Shown here: in pieces, positions 5,688 to 29,043 of the stretch | How the letters are laid out: every line of letters starts with the position of its first letter | How positions within the stretch are numbered: the stretch's first letter is position 1 | Origin: a virus | Length of the DNA: 64,000 nucleotides | IMG/VR virus record: IMGVR_UViG_3300017767_002783 | Coordinates: 1,249 to 65,248 of that record | Strand: one strand, 5' to 3' | Program-made: the position numbers and the translations under genes | The notes under the pieces: model-generated | The model's database searches: none | Seen by the model: only the letters and a program-made list of their open reading frames with translations | Told to the model about the DNA's origin: nothing

Positions 5688-5700
5688 CAAAGGAGTTATT

Positions 5701-5805
5701 ATGATAAAATATTTTAAATATCTTTGGTTTAAAGTTAAAGCTTGGTATCTTTACAAGAAGAAAATCAAAGAAATTAGAAAACGAGATCCGTTTATTTACA
5801 AATAA
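5701..5805 (+). CDS. Small basic hypothetical protein (34 aa, MIKYFKYLWFKVKAWYLYKKKIKEIRKRDPFIYK)
   Basis: Not in the ORF track. AGGAG at 5691-5695; exactly fills the gap between two genes. Confidence 0.6.
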   Translation: MIKYFKYLWFKVKAWYLYKKKIKEIRKRDPFIYK

Positions 5806-5806
5806 A

Positions 5807-15496: not shown

Positions 15497-16026
15497 AGGG
15501 TAGGTTCGATTCTGTAAATGAAACTTATCAACCTTATGTTAAAAAACATTTAGGTGAAAATTCATTACAAAATATTTTAACTTGTGGTGGTTCTGATGGT
15601 GCAGTAAATGTAGAACTTGAGCGTCACAAAGAATTTACTTATGAAAATATTTTTCACTATGAATTTAAAGATAGAGAAATTCATTTTGATGTAGTAATAA
15701 AAGATAATATTTTATGTCCTGAAGTCCCTATTGAATCTGTAAATTTGATTTATGCAGATGTTGGTGGACCAGGTTGTTATGATATGATAATGAAAGATGA
15801 CATAAAAAGTGGTGTTCTTAAAATACTTGAGGCTGGATTATATCAAAATAAACTTGGAATATTAGTTTTTTTATATTTTGACGGAGTAGGAATTGAACCT
15901 TTTTTAAATAGACAATATGGTGATTATAAATCAAAAGATTTTTTTAGTAAAGATGTTACTTGGTATGATAAATATAACAAGGGAACATATTCTCAAAGAT
16001 TAGATGGTGTGGTTTTTTATAAATGA
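15481..16026 (+). CDS. Hypothetical protein
   Basis: 181 aa ORF overlapping its neighbours in the operon; no motif recognised. Confidence 0.5.
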   Translation: MENTVKGRFDSVNETYQPYVKKHLGENSLQNILTCGGSDGAVNVELERHKEFTYENIFHYEFKDREIHFDVVIKDNILCPEVPIESVNLIYADVGGPGCYDMIMKDDIKSGVLKILEAGLYQNKLGILVFLYFDGVGIEPFLNRQYGDYKSKDFFSKDVTWYDKYNKGTYSQRLDGVVFYK

Positions 16027-17105
16027 GAAAGTATATTATAGTACGGAAATGGGCATGGACGAGTTTTTGGGATATTAGTTTTGGTAATCGAATAAGATTT
16101 TGGGAATTTGCACAGACCATTAATAAAATAAATAATTATAAATACACCCTTTTAGTACAGAGTGAAAACGTGGATGTGTGGGGTGAAAGTTATTTTATTA
16201 ATTATCCAAATACTATTGTAGTTAGATCATTTCCAACTATCAGTAATAAGAAGGTAAGACTTATTGATAATGCAAAGAATTATCATGAAGGAACTTTTGT
16301 ATTCGATGACGATGTTATTGATATAACACCATCCGTAGATAATTGGAACTATGTGAGACCTTTATGGGATGAGAATAATAGTAAAGTATCAACAAAAACC
16401 GACAATGTTGTTGCACAGGAATACCAAAAAACTGGTCATAGACCAATATTTGATATTGAAATATATGATAAAAAATTAGAAACTATTATTAAAGAAGAAG
16501 TTAAAGGTCGTGTGGGATTACACTTGAGGGGTGATACTCCAAATGGTCAATGGGATATTTACAAAAAACAACACCCAAATTCAAGAAAAGAATATATTAA
16601 ACAAGAACTTGATAAAATAGTGGATAGTGGATTTGACAAATTTTATTTATCTACTGATATTTTTGTTAAGCCTACTCAAAGGTTGATTAAAAAAGATTTT
16701 GTTAATTTTCATAAAGGTGTTTTGACAGACTTTGATGAAACCCATTGGAGTGAAGATTTAATAAATAAAGATGAGTATATTTGGAATGATGCATTTTATG
16801 AATATGATAAAGAAGAATATTTGTGGATAAATAGATTAAATACACCTGCGGATATAATGAAAGGAATTGGTGGTGAAAAACAATATAATTGGGTAAAAGA
16901 ATTATATGATGAGTATGATATAATTGATTATAGGAGTATTCTCAGTAAATATGATACTTTTTTAAATAATTGGAAAAAATTAAGATGTATTGATATAATT
17001 GATTTGTGGAGTTTGATTTATAGTGAAAAGTTTAGTGACCAAATGGGTAATAATGCTGGAACATTTTCTCGATTTGTCACTAATTACAGGAAAAAATTTG
17101 AATAG
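16023..17105 (+). CDS. NodZ/O-fucosyltransferase-like GT-B protein
   Basis: VGLHLRGD, KFYLSTD, IDLWSL...GTFSRF. Confidence 0.55.
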   Translation: MRKYIIVRKWAWTSFWDISFGNRIRFWEFAQTINKINNYKYTLLVQSENVDVWGESYFINYPNTIVVRSFPTISNKKVRLIDNAKNYHEGTFVFDDDVIDITPSVDNWNYVRPLWDENNSKVSTKTDNVVAQEYQKTGHRPIFDIEIYDKKLETIIKEEVKGRVGLHLRGDTPNGQWDIYKKQHPNSRKEYIKQELDKIVDSGFDKFYLSTDIFVKPTQRLIKKDFVNFHKGVLTDFDETHWSEDLINKDEYIWNDAFYEYDKEEYLWINRLNTPADIMKGIGGEKQYNWVKELYDEYDIIDYRSILSKYDTFLNNWKKLRCIDIIDLWSLIYSEKFSDQMGNNAGTFSRFVTNYRKKFE

Positions 17106-17120
17106 TTTTTAATTTTGTTT

Positions 17121-17129
17121 ATACTTATA
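17121..17129 (+). promoter_or_regulatory. ATACTTATA candidate promoter motif
   Basis: In the only sizeable intergenic gap of the glycan island, 7 nt before a structured leader. Confidence 0.4.
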
Positions 17130-17136
17130 TATAAGA

Positions 17137-17251
17137 AGTCTTGTAGAGATAACACGGGTAACCAATCCTGAAAGTCCAAACCCTCTACAAAGTAGACTAT
17201 AAACATGGGTGGCATCAAAGTAATTGGTGTCTCCGTTAAGGAGATTTTTTT
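17137..17251 (+). ncRNA. Candidate structured cis-regulatory 5' leader of the gmd-like gene
   Basis: agtc-ttgtagag (17137-17148) pairs with ctctacaa-[agta]-gact (17183-17198). Hairpin gtctcc/ggagat (17229-17245) buries the AGGAG SD and is followed by a T-run ending directly at the ATG. Confidence 0.45.
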
Positions 17252-18283
17252 ATGCGAGTTTTAATAACAGGTATTACAGGTTTTGTTGGTAGTCATATGG
17301 CTGACTATCTAATTGAAAATATTCCAAATGTAGAAATATTTGCTATCAGAAGATGGAGAAGTCGTGATGATAATATCAGACATTTGTACTCTGCTGGTAA
17401 ATATGGTGATGATAAACAAGACCATGTTCAATTTATTGAGGCAGATTTAGGTGATAGGGGAAGCTTGTCAAATGCGATAAAAATATCTAAACCAGATATT
17501 GTTTATCATTTTGCGGCTCAAAGTTTTCCTGAATCAAGTTTTCTCACGCCAGTTAGTACCCTTACAACAAATGTAATTGGTACTACCAATCTTTTAGAAG
17601 AATTAAAATTGGCAAAGGATAGAAATTATTGTAATCCTACAATAATAAGTGTTTCCTCATCCGAGGTATATGGTAATCCAAAGGAAGATGAAGTTCCAAT
17701 AACAGAAGATAACTGTATTAGAGCAGCCAATCCATACTCAATATCAAAAGTAGGACATGATTTAATGTCACAATATTATGCAAATGCATACGATATGAAA
17801 ATCATAATAACTCGTATGTTTTCCCATGAGGGTTCTCGTAGAGGAAAACGATTTGCACTATCGTGGTTTGCATATCAGATAGTAATGGCAGAAAAAGATG
17901 AAAACTTTCCACCATATGCCCCAAGTTTCCCAACACATCCTATTAAACACGGAAATCTCGATTCCGTTAGAACTTATAATCATATAGAAGATGCAGTTCA
18001 TGCCTATTGGTTGGCCGTAGATAAGTGTGATTCTGGTGAAGTTTATAATATAGGTGGTGATTACACTTGTACGGTTGGAGATGCATTAGATATGTTAATA
18101 TCAAAATCAATAAATCCTAAAGCCTTTATAAAAGAACTTGATCCTGCAAGAGTTAGACCAACTGATATTACATTACAAATACCAAGTAGTGATAAATTCC
18201 GAGAGAAAACAGGTTGGAAACCAATAAAAGGATTAGAAGAAATTTGTGATGATTTATTAAATTATTGGAGAAAAGTTTTATGA
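17252..18283 (+). CDS. gmd: GDP-mannose 4,6-dehydratase-like SDR
   Basis: LITGITGFVGSH, HFAAQSFP, SSSEVYG, NPYSISK (YxxxK), HGNLDSVR. Confidence 0.8.
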   Translation: MRVLITGITGFVGSHMADYLIENIPNVEIFAIRRWRSRDDNIRHLYSAGKYGDDKQDHVQFIEADLGDRGSLSNAIKISKPDIVYHFAAQSFPESSFLTPVSTLTTNVIGTTNLLEELKLAKDRNYCNPTIISVSSSEVYGNPKEDEVPITEDNCIRAANPYSISKVGHDLMSQYYANAYDMKIIITRMFSHEGSRRGKRFALSWFAYQIVMAEKDENFPPYAPSFPTHPIKHGNLDSVRTYNHIEDAVHAYWLAVDKCDSGEVYNIGGDYTCTVGDALDMLISKSINPKAFIKELDPARVRPTDITLQIPSSDKFREKTGWKPIKGLEEICDDLLNYWRKVL

Positions 18284-18756
18284 TTGAAGGATTAGAGACT
18301 TTTGAAATAGATGCTTGGGAAGATTTCAGAGGTGATATTTACACAACTTGGGATAGTGAAAAATATCCAAGACTAAATTGGAGACTTGATAAATTTTCAC
18401 ATTCACGAAAAAATACACTACGAGGTTTACACGGAGATGATAAAACTTGGAAACTTATAAATTGTGTACAAGGAGAATTTTACCTTATAGTTGCAGATAA
18501 TCGACCTAGCTCACCATCATATAGAGATTGGGATTCGTTTGTATTATCAGCTAAAAACAGAAAACAAGTTTTAGTTCCACCTGGTTGTGCAAATGGACAC
18601 TTTGTTCTAAGTGATGATTGTACATTTCATTACAAACAGGCATTTGATGGGAATTACAATGATATAGATAAACAATTTGTCATAAAATGGGATGATGAGA
18701 TGTGGTCATTCGAATGGCCCCACAACAATCCAACTTTATTTGGGAGAGACAGATGA
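18280..18756 (+). CDS. rmlC: dTDP-4-dehydrorhamnose 3,5-epimerase-like cupin
   Basis: DFRG, LRGLHG, VPPGCANGH, W.D...EWP; start at the ATGA overlap. Confidence 0.85.
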   Translation: MIEGLETFEIDAWEDFRGDIYTTWDSEKYPRLNWRLDKFSHSRKNTLRGLHGDDKTWKLINCVQGEFYLIVADNRPSSPSYRDWDSFVLSAKNRKQVLVPPGCANGHFVLSDDCTFHYKQAFDGNYNDIDKQFVIKWDDEMWSFEWPHNNPTLFGRDR

Positions 18757-19382
18757 ATATACCATACACATTAGAAAAAGTAAGAGATATTAAAATAACA
18801 GAATCCGATTTAATCGAATTTGAAGAAGAAGTCAAAGAGAAGTATGAAAATACTGAAATAAAAGCTCCTGTTCATTTAACTAAAAATAACGAAAAGGAAT
18901 TGATAGAAATATTTCAATATGTACATCCTGATGATTGGGTTTTTTGTGGACATAGAAATCACCATCATGCACTTTTACATGGTGTTCCACGAGACACACT
19001 AATGGATTTGGTAGTTCGTGGTAGAAGTATGAGTGTACATTCTAAAAAACCTAAGCTTTACTCATCTTCTATTGTGGGTGGAACTATATCTATTGCACTT
19101 GGTACGGCACTATCTTTAAAACGGAAGGGTTCTAAACAAAAGGCTTGGTGTTTTATAGGAGATATGGCCTTTGAAACGGGTATCTTTTATGAGGCACATA
19201 AATACGCAACTAATTTTGATTTACCATTACAATTTGTTGTTGAGGATAATAATATGAGTACCAATACACCAACAGATGAAACTTGGAATTATAAAAAAAG
19301 AGATATCCCATATGGTGTAATTTACTATCAATATGACAGAGGATTTCCACATCATGGAACAGGAAATTGGGTATTATTTTAA
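18753..19382 (+). CDS. ThDP-dependent dehydrogenase E1 alpha-like subunit (short)
   Basis: DWVFCGHRNHHHALLHG, SSIVGG, GDMAFETG...VEDNN ThDP motif; start at the ATGA overlap. Confidence 0.8.
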   Translation: MNIPYTLEKVRDIKITESDLIEFEEEVKEKYENTEIKAPVHLTKNNEKELIEIFQYVHPDDWVFCGHRNHHHALLHGVPRDTLMDLVVRGRSMSVHSKKPKLYSSSIVGGTISIALGTALSLKRKGSKQKAWCFIGDMAFETGIFYEAHKYATNFDLPLQFVVEDNNMSTNTPTDETWNYKKRDIPYGVIYYQYDRGFPHHGTGNWVLF

Positions 19383-19383
19383 T

Positions 19384-20127
19384 ATGAAATATTTGTATGT
19401 TGGTGGAGATAGTATGTCTGATGGTTCTTGTTTAATTGAATATTCTGATGAACGGATAAAAAGATTAAAATTAAAACACACGGAGTGGGATATTGGATTT
19501 GATGAGAGGTGGAGTAAATTACTTTCAGATAAACTTAATTTAGAAGAAATAAATCAGGCCAGACATGGTAATTCAAATGATAAAATATTTAGAACTACTA
19601 TGGATTGGGCACTTAACCATATTGAAGATTTAAGTGAAACTTTATTTGTTATTGGTTGGACAGGCTATGATAGATTTGAGTTTTATGATAATTACTTGGA
19701 TAGATATGTACAAGTTTCAAATGGAGAACCTACTCATAATGATAGGGATGACAAGAGATTACAAAAATATGTAATTCAGTATTGGAAAGAACATCACAAC
19801 AAAAAAGAAGTTAAGGATAATTACTTACGAAAAATAATTTCATTACAATCTTTTTTTCAATCAAATAATATATCTTACTTATTTTTTGATGCAATTGGAT
19901 TACAAGTTGATGTAATTAAAGAAAATAAATATAAGTTGTTTCTTGATAAAAATCATTGGTGGAATTATAATAAATCAATTAATAGTTTTCATCATATAGC
20001 AGAAAAATTAAAAAGTTTTGGAATTGATTTTAAAGATGACGAACACGGATATCACGGACATCCTGGTATTGAAGCACACGAGAAATTATCAGAAGAACTT
20101 TATGTAAAGGTTAAAAATATATTATGA
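19384..20127 (+). CDS. SGNH/GDSL-like protein, copy 7
   Basis: MKYLYVGGDSMS, GNSNDKIFR, IGWT, HGHPG. Confidence 0.65.
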   Translation: MKYLYVGGDSMSDGSCLIEYSDERIKRLKLKHTEWDIGFDERWSKLLSDKLNLEEINQARHGNSNDKIFRTTMDWALNHIEDLSETLFVIGWTGYDRFEFYDNYLDRYVQVSNGEPTHNDRDDKRLQKYVIQYWKEHHNKKEVKDNYLRKIISLQSFFQSNNISYLFFDAIGLQVDVIKENKYKLFLDKNHWWNYNKSINSFHHIAEKLKSFGIDFKDDEHGYHGHPGIEAHEKLSEELYVKVKNIL

Positions 20128-20654
20128 AATACAAAGATGAATTAATAAGAAGTATGGAGTGGTTGAGTGAGAAAGATGATACAGTTTTTCTTGGACAATC
20201 AGTTTTATATAGTGGTAATGCCATTTATAATACATTAAATACTTTACCATCAGAGAAAATGATAGAACTTCCTGTTTTTGAGGAAGTTCAAATGGGAATG
20301 AGTACAGGATTAGCATTAGATGGATATGTTCCAATTAGTTGTTTTCCACGATTTGATTTCTTAATGAGGTGTATGGATGCATTAATGAACCATTTAGACA
20401 AGGTTAAATATATGACAGAAAATATATTTCAACCAAAGGTCATTATTAGAACTTCCATTGGGGCTAAATTTCCATTGGATGGTGGGATACAACACACACG
20501 AGATTACACTCAGATGATGAAAGATAATTTAACAGAAATTGATGTAGTTTTATTAAATGAGCCTGAAGAAATATTTCCTGCATTTAAAAAGGCTTACGAA
20601 AACGAAGGTTCTACAATGATTGTGGAACAAGGAGATTTTTATAATGAAAAATAA
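20124..20654 (+). CDS. E1 beta / transketolase pyrimidine-binding-domain protein (short)
   Basis: FLGQSV, PVFEEVQMGMSTGLAL, PRFDFL, HLDK, QHTRD. Confidence 0.8.
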   Translation: MKYKDELIRSMEWLSEKDDTVFLGQSVLYSGNAIYNTLNTLPSEKMIELPVFEEVQMGMSTGLALDGYVPISCFPRFDFLMRCMDALMNHLDKVKYMTENIFQPKVIIRTSIGAKFPLDGGIQHTRDYTQMMKDNLTEIDVVLLNEPEEIFPAFKKAYENEGSTMIVEQGDFYNEK

Positions 20655-21555
20655 AAGTGTATTAGTAACAGGTGGTGGTGGAATGGTGGCACATTTTTTA
20701 ATAAAATTATTAAAAGATTTAGATGCTAATGTTACAAGAGTAGATTTACCAACTTCACAATTACCCGTTGATATCGAAGGTGATTTAAGAAGTAGAAAAT
20801 TTTGTGAAGAAATATGTGAAGGTAAAGATTTTATTTTTAATCTCGCCGGACTTAAAGGTTCACCAAAACGAGTGATAGAATCTCCAGCGACATTTAGTGT
20901 TCCACAAGTTCAGTTTGGTGCAAATATGGCTGAAGCAGCTTTTAATTCTAAATGTAAGTGGTATTTATACACAAGTTCAGTAGGTGTGTACCATCCCGCA
21001 GAAGTTTTTTACGAGGATGACGTATGGGAAACATTTCCGTCAAAACACGATTGGTATCCTGGCTGGGCAAAAAGAATGGGAGAATTAAATGTTCAATCGT
21101 ATATGGAAGAAACCAACAATAAAAATTGTTCAATAGTTAGACCTGCTAATGTATATGGTCCTTATGATAATTTTGGTGAATGGTCTATGGTTGTTCCATC
21201 ATTAATTAAAAAGGCCTTTGAAAATGATGTATTGGAAGTGTGGGGTGATGGTTCACCTATAAGAGATTTAATTTATGCTGAAGATGTGGCACGTGGAATG
21301 TTACATATGGTACAGAACGAAGTAAATGAACCAGTTAATCTTGCAAGTGGAACAGGAGTAACCATCAAGGAAGTTGCAGAAATAGTTTCTAAATATTTTG
21401 GTAAAGAGATTAAGTGGGATACTACAAAACCTATGGGTGATATGAAAAGAATAATGAGTACAGAACGTGCAGAAAGTTATGGGTTTACACCAAATGTATC
21501 TTTAACAGAAGGAATACATAATACCATTGAGTGGTATTTAAAAATCAATGAGTGA
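20644..21555 (+). CDS. NAD-dependent epimerase/reductase (GDP-fucose synthase-like SDR)
   Basis: VLVTGGGGMVA, YTSSVGVY, GWAKRMGE, RPANVYGPYDNF, WGDGSPIRDLIY. Confidence 0.8.
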   Translation: MKNKSVLVTGGGGMVAHFLIKLLKDLDANVTRVDLPTSQLPVDIEGDLRSRKFCEEICEGKDFIFNLAGLKGSPKRVIESPATFSVPQVQFGANMAEAAFNSKCKWYLYTSSVGVYHPAEVFYEDDVWETFPSKHDWYPGWAKRMGELNVQSYMEETNNKNCSIVRPANVYGPYDNFGEWSMVVPSLIKKAFENDVLEVWGDGSPIRDLIYAEDVARGMLHMVQNEVNEPVNLASGTGVTIKEVAEIVSKYFGKEIKWDTTKPMGDMKRIMSTERAESYGFTPNVSLTEGIHNTIEWYLKINE

Positions 21556-28092: not shown

Positions 28093-29043
28093 ATGTTTTA
28101 TAAAGATAAAAAAATTGTTGTAACGGGTGGAAGTGGTTTCGTAGGAACAAACTTTATACTTGAACTACTTGAAAGAGGTGCCGATGTTACCACTCACACT
28201 CATGTTAGACCTATGGAAATAGAAGATGATAGAATTAAAGTTATAGAAAATATAGATTTATTTAAACTTGAAGATTGTATTAAACTATTAGAAGGTGCTG
28301 ACTATGTTATTCATTGTGGTGGTTACATAACAAATCCATCAGAAGTAAGAACTAATGTTCAAGTATTGTTACATAACATTAATAGTACTGCAAATGTTTT
28401 AGAGGCCGCAGCAAAATGTGAACTTAAAGGTTATTTGGATATAAATAGTTCTACTGGTTATCCAGATAAACGATATCCAATTACAGAAGATGAATATTGG
28501 GATGAAGAACCACATGAATCTTACTTTGGTTATGGGTGGATGAGAAGGTATAGAGAAAAACTAATGGAGTTTGTAAGTGGATTTTCCAATTTAAAAATAG
28601 CCTTAGCAAGAGGAACTGCAATGTATGGGCCATTTGACAACTTTAATCCTAAAACTTGTCATGTAGTTCCTGCACTAATTAACAGAGTTTTAAGTGGTGA
28701 GGATCCGTTTGTGGTTTGGGGAACATCAGATGTTGTTAGGGATTTTTTATATGTCAGAGATGTAGTTGATGGTGGATTGTTAGTTTTAGAAAAGGGAGAA
28801 TCTATGAGACCATATAATGTTGGGGCTGGAACAGCAATTACAGTTGGTGATATTGTAGATGCAGTTTTAAAGGCCACAAATAAAAATCCAAAAGTACAAT
28901 ATGATGAAACAAAACCAACCACGATACCTTTTAGAATGGTAAGTACCGAAAGAATTAAAGATGAACTTGGATTTGAACCAAAGTGGTCTTTTGAAGAAGG
29001 AATTAAAAAAACTGTGGATTGGTATGTTAACAATAGGAGTTGA
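28093..29043 (+). CDS. NAD-dependent epimerase/reductase (WcaG/ColC-like SDR)
   Basis: VVTGGSGFVG, SSTGYP, YGWMRR, YGPFDNF, WGTSDVVRDFLY. Confidence 0.8.
   Translation: MFYKDKKIVVTGGSGFVGTNFILELLERGADVTTHTHVRPMEIEDDRIKVIENIDLFKLEDCIKLLEGADYVIHCGGYITNPSEVRTNVQVLLHNINSTANVLEAAAKCELKGYLDINSSTGYPDKRYPITEDEYWDEEPHESYFGYGWMRRYREKLMEFVSGFSNLKIALARGTAMYGPFDNFNPKTCHVVPALINRVLSGEDPFVVWGTSDVVRDFLYVRDVVDGGLLVLEKGESMRPYNVGAGTAITVGDIVDAVLKATNKNPKVQYDETKPTTIPFRMVSTERIKDELGFEPKWSFEEGIKKTVDWYVNNRS

Follow-up and report, generated by a model that had tools for sequence, protein, structure and literature searches.

A conserved pseudoknotted leader RNA, a candidate OFF riboswitch, in front of sugar-tailoring operons of marine phages

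Introduction

What is the function of a 146-nt gap that stands in front of a phage sugar operon? The gap lies in a 64-kb stretch of viral DNA (the window), which is a piece of the 65.8-kb IMG/VR virus record IMGVR_UViG_3300017767_002783. The window has about 30% G+C and carries all of its genes on the + strand; a large terminase of the T4 type, a portal protein and a major head protein are among their products. Its terminase is about 55% identical to the terminases of Microcystis phage Mel-JY01 and the Flavobacterium 'immuto' phages. The gap separates an open reading frame (ORF) at 16023–17105 from a short-chain dehydrogenase/reductase (SDR) gene at 17252–18283, and it is the longest one between the listed ORFs in the first 38 kb.

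A first-pass annotation, made from the sequence alone, had regarded the gap as a riboswitch-like or protein-bound attenuator before nucleotide-sugar genes. This proposal is supported by homologous leaders, which are conserved, contain covarying pairs and always precede sugar-tailoring clusters. The gap very probably holds one copy of a pseudoknotted, conserved, cis-acting structured leader RNA, whatever the effector is. The reading favored here is that this leader is a small-molecule OFF riboswitch of the sugar operon.

Results

A conserved core with covarying stems and a pseudoknot

The core of the motif comprises 78 nt (17137–17214) and is the GC-richer island that had been noticed in the gap, with 42% G+C versus about 30% for the window. 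The 12-bp bulged stem described in the first-pass annotation was found again. It consists of AGTCT (17137–17141) paired with AGACT (17194–17198), named P1a here, and of GTAGA(G) (17143–17148) paired with (C)TCTAC (17183–17188), named P1b. The stem encloses the CGGG/CCTG hairpin P2 (17155–17158 with 17167–17170), which had likewise been seen. The 6-pair hairpin at 17229–17245 was recovered by a terminator scan. Its 3' arm contains GGAG (17240–17243) of the Shine-Dalgarno (SD) sequence, and seven T (17245–17251) run up to the ATG at 17252. Absent from the earlier account was a pseudoknot, which is formed by the pairs 17176–78/17210–12 and 17181–83/17207–09 with an AA bulge between the two halves. 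Its C-rich strand is within the P1 loop and its G-rich strand is located immediately 3' of P1.

The window sequence alone folds no better than its shuffles (z = −0.89 on the + strand and −0.59 on the − strand, both within one standard deviation), so the evidence for a non-random structure rests on the comparison with other phages. An exact 21-mer from the stem matched a second phage contig, in which a near-identical element stands before an RmlC-like epimerase gene. The closest homologue of the downstream SDR (90% identity) has a diverged copy of the leader with visible compensatory changes. Scanning with degenerate patterns returned 25 stretches from viral sequences, about 20 of which are true motifs, more than 119 stretches from metagenomes, and 45 stretches from 185,579 prokaryote species genomes, with a single true motif among the last. 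This one (L205) is on NZZP01000015.1, a 14.7-kb contig of a gammaproteobacterial metagenome-assembled genome. It is probably a mis-binned phage contig rather than a clue to the host, because its aptamer is identical to those of several viral contigs.

A covariance model was built from 72 distinct cores. Among the matches listed, it matched 91 loci on marine viral and metagenome contigs (77 distinct sequences; E-values from 8e-15 to 3e-5), and it caught a diverged member that was missed by every pattern. The model found a single copy in the window. Five related phage records, one of them 216 kb long and rated 100% complete, likewise had one copy each, and no second copy was found in the window or in its parent record. 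All sources of the motif are marine, and the window's own sequence is present in runs of 15 studies. The letters AAAG.CC.AACC and GACTATAAA were fixed in the patterns by which most members were found, and more divergent members are under-sampled.

The comparison of the homologous leaders showed that both sequence and structure are conserved and that the stems carry compensatory changes. Standard pairs occupied 94.4% of the cells in a MAFFT alignment and 96.4% in a model-guided alignment; in the controls, the paired cells fell to about 80% after partner shuffling and to 34–46% after the partners were slid. The covariation score was 0.377; the shuffles gave 0.12–0.13 (0.117 on average in the model-guided alignment) and none of 500 reached this score, while sliding the partners gave no more than 0.078 (0.071 in the model-guided alignment). 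The independent MAFFT alignment agreed. The first four pairs of P1a are invariant and the fifth covaries (CG 22, UA 16, AU 4). P1b (17143–47/17184–88) exhibited both-sided changes in all five pairs with 98.7% of the cells paired, and all four pairs of P2 covary. P2 is variable in length: at one extreme stands a 3-bp CUC-UUCG-GAG hairpin, other members carry insertions of 14 to about 55 nt, the longest of them branched, and the core is kept throughout. The insertion of about 55 nt was observed in L085:1093–1224, L064:11276–11403 and L067:210–337. It has a branched fold there, and neither the core and its pseudoknot strands nor the SDR gene downstream is lost. For the pseudoknot, four of the six pairs are uninformative because they were fixed by the search filters. 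The two free pairs do covary, and each of them shows three Watson-Crick types: one occurs as UA 41, AU 18 and CG 12, the other as GC 44, CG 29 and UA 2.

Unpaired positions are also highly conserved, namely UAAC in the junction J1/2, the AAAG linker, the AA bulge and the AUAAA tail after P1a. In the A2 alignment, UAAC is at least 90% conserved though it is absent from most search patterns. The AAAG linker is invariant in the same alignment and belongs to the pattern letters of most scans; it also occurs in all four true matches from the initial gapped scan, in which this block was not part of the pattern. In a scan that did not require GACTATAAA, this string was present in 17 of the 18 true matches. 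GACUAUAAA was also present in 17 of the 18, and the exception reads GACAUUAAA. The motif combines a conserved, covarying structured domain with conserved unpaired positions, as is expected of a riboswitch.

Two mutually exclusive structures behind the core

Downstream of the core, two competing structures were computed for the window. In the unconstrained fold (−12.1 kcal/mol), the hairpin P3 is extended by 17205–09/17232–36, which uses up the 5' arm of the terminator. When 17207–12 was blocked, a short P3 and the terminator hairpin (17231–34/17240–43) were formed at −10.6 to −11.2 kcal/mol, a cost of about 1–1.5 kcal/mol. The usual expression platform in the family has a P3 whose 5' arm starts in the 3' strand of the pseudoknot, a hairpin with the SD as its 3' arm, and a U-run abutting the start codon. 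A terminator-like hairpin with a U-run was present in 64 of the 67 distinct platforms. In 52 of these 64, the terminator is absent from the free fold, in which its arm is paired with the pseudoknot strand instead. The energy difference between the two states had a median of 0.6 kcal/mol over the 67 distinct platforms. The 3' strand of the pseudoknot can otherwise pair with the 5' arm of the terminator, and therefore formation of the pseudoknot is predicted to bring about terminator formation and a hidden SD.

Two further arrangements were found. L099 and L221/L223 have no terminator, and the 3' strand of their pseudoknot, AGGAGG, is itself the SD, with the ATG 3–5 nt after GGAGGCA. Loci of the L158 and L160 type have a strong terminator followed by a separate SD hairpin. 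One sensor is therefore joined to three platform types, and one sensor with several platform types is a classical riboswitch signature. It is likewise expected of a riboswitch that the platform pairings overlap the sensor domain, which is the case in the computed folds. In effect, the G-rich strand of the pseudoknot would mimic the SD, and both would compete for the same C-rich arm. The folding model predicts that pseudoknot formation is the OFF state in all three arrangements. A leader peptide was rejected as an alternative device: the reading frame from the ATG at 17205 comprises 19 codons and has no SD, and most homologues lack this ATG.

Sugar-tailoring genes follow the leader

The motif has a fixed position in the 5' untranslated region (UTR), on the same strand as functionally related genes, which is again expected of a riboswitch. 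The distance from the core to the start codon is −6 to 81 nt as called, and 34–81 nt when the starts are re-read. All of the 87 callable first genes fall into nine families of nucleoside diphosphate (NDP)-sugar tailoring enzymes. The most frequent are the 4,6-dehydratase-like SDR (27 loci), the RmlC-like cupin (23 loci, or 24 with the mis-called L146), a DUF6071-like protein (15 loci) and a second SDR family (9 loci). The others are a B12-binding radical SAM enzyme (4 loci), a 2-oxoglutarate (2OG)-Fe(II) oxygenase (3 loci), an Fcl-like SDR (2 loci), a transketolase-like subunit (2 loci) and a GT92-type glycosyltransferase (1 locus).

The 17 loci with at least 6 kb of downstream sequence share genes for RmlC-like (16 loci), thiamine-dependent E1 alpha-like (17), E1 beta-like (14) and Fcl-like SDR (16) proteins, and the window counterparts of these genes are at 18265–21555 and 28093–29043. 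The string of genes that starts at 17252 in the window also holds DegT-type, acetolactate-synthase-like and PanB-like enzymes and a 2OG oxygenase; the PanB-like, acetolactate-synthase-like and DegT-like genes are rare among the 17 long loci. As judged from gene content, the shared genes define a putative conserved core pathway with variable decoration.

The gmd label given to the first gene of the window in the first-pass annotation could not be kept. The product of 17252–18283 scores 113 bits versus a gmd equivalog cut-off of 415, and it is an NDP-sugar 4,6-dehydratase-like SDR rather than a proven Gmd. Against Gmd, RmlB, CDP-glucose dehydratase and LegB it scores 98–125 bits, far below each NCBIfam equivalog cut-off. 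Because the first gene is below every one of these cut-offs, the nucleotide carrier is not identifiable from it.

Upstream boxes and RNA-library contigs

A box of the TAYTTATATAT type was found in 60 of the 76 distinct upstream flanks, and the distance from the end of its TTATAT to the first A of the core is 1–10 nt. A T4-late-like TATAAATA box occupies this place in other lineages. This suggests a promoter at the box that starts the RNA at P1. In L088, L054 and their relatives, the T4-late-type box is about 7 nt before the core and replaces the TAYTTATATAT box. Depending on the phage, promoters of different classes would then drive one and the same leader. In the window, the box upstream of the core is the only exact match. 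Near-matches were slightly enriched (28 versus 18.3 expected, with 3 of 100 shuffles reaching 28), a weak enrichment that says little on whether the box is a phage promoter repeated across the window.

The RNA-library data are assembled contigs from four of the six RNA runs that contain the stretch, from which starts, ends, strand and level are not readable. The contigs cover the leader. In two metatranscriptome runs, they begin at 17149 and 17207 with nothing upstream, at different places and with low depth, and in two oligo-dT runs the contigs cover the upstream gene too. One low-depth metatranscriptome contig (run X17) has the reverse complement of 17183–17212 joined directly to 17149–17304. 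The joint is exactly at the base of P1b (G17148:C17183) and looks like a complementary DNA snap-back at a stable RNA hairpin.

Comparison with known RNAs

The first-pass annotation had considered the leader as possibly a new motif. Consistently, a covariance-model search of the leader and its homologous loci against Rfam found no matching family. With the 4227 models of Rfam 15, there were zero matches at the gathering score in the whole window. Near the gap (16950–17400), only chance-level matches to unrelated families were found at E up to 10, and in eight other loci nothing was found at the motif. No description of the motif was found in the literature, with subscription journals outside the coverage. 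Of the strings conserved in the motif, the first 200 of the 438 supplementary files of PMC2864571 contain only GACUAUAAA, in some flanks. Pelagimyophages and cyanomyophages had been surveyed for riboswitches with a scanner for known classes, and none were reported (PMC7029224). The Ocean-VI motif (Weinberg 2010, not in Rfam) was rejected, as its description (methionine genes, small-RNA-like) does not fit. The motif is a new, uncatalogued RNA family within a well-known kind of regulator.

The closest known RNAs in context are wcaG and manA, orphan riboswitch candidates that are located upstream of polysaccharide genes in marine T4-like (cyano)phages (PMC2864571). Like the present motif, wcaG (RF01761) occurs in the 5' UTR of exopolysaccharide or nucleotide-sugar genes of marine T4-like phages and in metagenomes. 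The wcaG model consists of three successive hairpins and two UGGYG boxes and has no pseudoknot, whereas the present motif has nested P1 and P2 closed by a pseudoknot. RF01761 (gathering score 42 bits) did not match in 16950–17400 at E up to 10 or in the eight loci at E up to 1, and in five whole phage records its best matches were at most 13 bits and away from the motif. A genuine wcaG RNA, from phage S-SCSM1, scored 37 bits on RF01761 and at most 7 bits on the model of the new motif. The manA RNA (RF01745) shares the marine setting, in phages and metagenomes, and precedes genes related to mannose/fructose and nucleotide sugars, but is described as a larger multi-stem junction motif (PMC2864571) and gave no covariance-model match to the present motif. 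Some wcaG RNAs (wcaG.sto, PMC2864571) have a mini-hairpin AGUCU-loop-AGACU in the 5' flank, followed by AUAAAAG, which are the letters of P1a and the AUAAA tail. This mini-hairpin is absent from the wcaG locus of S-SCSM1. The likeness may be due to chance, or marine T4-like phages may share a 5' module or an element close to the promoter.

In topology, the motif resembles SAM-II/SAM-V and preQ1-II. These are H-type pseudoknot riboswitches that hide the SD, in which the 3' tail pairs with the P1 loop and an A-rich strand follows P1. In two lineages of the present motif, the 3' strand is likewise the SD. However, no Rfam match to these classes was found, and the conserved letters, the embedded P2 and the terminator/antiterminator platform of most members are different. 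The gene context is nucleotide-sugar tailoring here versus S-adenosylmethionine or queuosine metabolism there. The leader pseudoknot of T4 gene 32 is a protein-bound translational operator that autoregulates a single gene via its own product. Like the present motif, it is a 5' leader of a T4-like phage with a pseudoknot, and it acts on the gene behind it. In contrast, the present motif stands before nine unrelated first genes and has a terminator switch attached.

Features of the locus

The features are collected in the table below. The statement of the first-pass annotation that the 146-nt gap is the only long one in 38 kb holds, because the sole other gap (5688–5806) contains an ORF of 34 codons with its own SD. 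This small ORF (5702–5806, + strand) is abundant in basic and aromatic residues, has an AAGGAG SD 6 nt upstream and is below the ORF listing threshold. The blastn search of 16000–19000 of the window against isolated phages returned no match, and a scan for tRNA and tmRNA genes found none.

Table. Elements of the leader and flanking genes in the window
Feature	Position	Strand	Remark
ORF upstream of the gap, family not assigned	16023–17105	+	
AT-rich upstream box, TAYTTATATAT type, promoter-like	17122–17132	+	ends 4 nt before the core
P1a 5' strand AGTCT	17137–17141	+	pairs with 17194–17198
P1b 5' strand GTAGAG	17143–17148	+	pairs with 17183/17184–17188
Conserved junction J1/2, ATAACA, core UAAC	17149–17154	+	sequence conservation
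P2 hairpin CGGG...CCTG	17155–17170	+	covariation; length varies in the family
Single-stranded conserved linker AAAG(U/A)	17171–17175	+	sequence conservation
Pseudoknot 5' strand CCA-AA-CCC	17176–17183	+	covariation
P1b 3' strand TCTAC	17184–17188	+	covariation
P1a 3' strand AGACT, then conserved AUAAA tail	17194–17203	+	conservation, GACUAUAAA
Pseudoknot 3' strand GGGTGG, alternatively 5' side of antiterminator	17207–17212	+	covariation; free fold
P3 hairpin 17211–18/17224–31; antiterminator when extended by 17205–09/17232–36	17211–17231	+	computed folds
Terminator-like hairpin, SD GGAG 17240–43, seven T 17245–51	17229–17251	+	terminator scan; blocked fold
NDP-sugar 4,6-dehydratase-like SDR, first gene of a sugar-tailoring string of about 20 kb	17252–18283	+	Pfam GDP_Man_Dehyd 3e-65

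Discussion

A small-molecule OFF riboswitch is the explanation preferred here, and it would work in the following way. Transcription probably begins just downstream of the AT-rich box, and the first 78 nt would fold into a compact H-type pseudoknot, in which P1a and P1b enclose P2 and the C-rich strand, and the C-rich strand pairs with the G-rich strand outside P1. The pseudoknot would be stabilized by an effector, for which a small metabolite connected with the NDP-sugar pathway is the likeliest candidate. Once it is formed, the G-rich strand would be locked and 17231–17234 would pair with the SD to give the terminator with its seven U; transcription would stop and the SD would be hidden. When no effector is bound, the G-rich strand would extend P3 via the 5' arm of the terminator, and this antiterminator would permit read-through into the operon with the SD free. 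A narrower version can be offered only tentatively, namely that the riboswitch senses a nucleotide-activated sugar, either the end product or the 4-keto-6-deoxy intermediate of a branched deoxysugar pathway. Such a riboswitch would be phage-only and the first of its kind.

Several points weigh against a riboswitch. No ligand is known, and it is not evident why a lytic phage would need feedback from a metabolite on its sugar pathway. In 12 of the 64 platforms with a terminator, the minimum-energy fold retains the terminator whether the pseudoknot strand is free or not. The fold energy of the single sequence is ordinary (z about −0.9), which says nothing either way. The conservation of the letters AAAG.CC.AACC and GACTATAAA is partly by construction, because most search patterns contained them, and is only partly controlled. 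Finally, the upstream gene and the leader are joined in one contig from an RNA library, so there may be read-through from upstream.

The structural evidence fits equally well with a protein-dependent attenuator, which would have the same fold and the same terminator/antiterminator logic and in which a phage or host RNA-binding protein would stabilize or melt the pseudoknot. The conserved single-stranded UAAC, AAAG and AUAAA could be protein contacts. T4-like phages use translational repressors; one precedent is the gene 32 protein of T4, which acts on the pseudoknotted leader of its own mRNA, and the leaders of ribosomal-protein mRNAs behave similarly. However, the first genes belong to nine unrelated families, and autoregulation by the gene product is therefore unlikely. 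Among the genes common to the downstream clusters, no RNA-binding or regulator-like protein was found. The retention of the core across differing promoter boxes and platform types would also be easier with a universal small molecule, and control by a protein is considered unlikely. A leader that needs no effector is decidedly improbable. It would serve for fixed termination, mRNA stability or translation, or would respond only to temperature, transcription speed or ribosome loading. Because the two states are nearly isoenergetic (median 0.6 kcal/mol), kinetics alone could partition the transcripts, and 12 of 64 members have a terminator that is stable in either case. However, about 25 unpaired positions are conserved, and a constitutive attenuator would not need anything as elaborate as a pseudoknot with no other visible role than competition for the antiterminator strand. 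The same strand is also linked to two different types of platform.

The promoter-like box, the terminator-like end and the RNA-library contigs over the leader would also be accounted for by a stand-alone small RNA of about 115 nt, which would run from its own promoter to the terminator at 17245–17251 and act in trans, its place before sugar genes being incidental or secondary. The close connection with the next gene makes this very improbable: the 3' arm of the terminator is the SD of that gene, the U-run abuts its ATG, and the distance and strand relative to the gene are fixed. Moreover, L099 and L221 have no terminator, and the pseudoknot strand itself is their SD. As for a diverged member of the wcaG or manA families, the habitat, the phage type and the class of regulated genes are the same (PMC2864571), yet no match to these families was found in the gap (E up to 10), in the eight homologous loci (E up to 1) or at the motif in the five phage records, which leaves this relationship with hardly any probability.

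The identification of this motif has consequences for both RNA and phage biology. To our knowledge, no validated riboswitch senses a nucleotide sugar, and we know of no ligand assigned to wcaG or manA since 2010. The motif is a cleaner test case than these two RNAs, with its 78 nt, single-copy occurrence, strong covariation and transparent OFF logic, and its narrow regulon limits the candidate ligands. Phage-specific regulatory RNAs are still missing from Rfam, and the motif can be used as a practical marker of sugar-operon starts in viral metagenomes. Large marine phages appear to control sugar-tailoring clusters through RNA structure. If the sensing of a nucleotide sugar is true, a lytic marine phage would throttle a 20-kb glycan-building operon by the pool of its own product.

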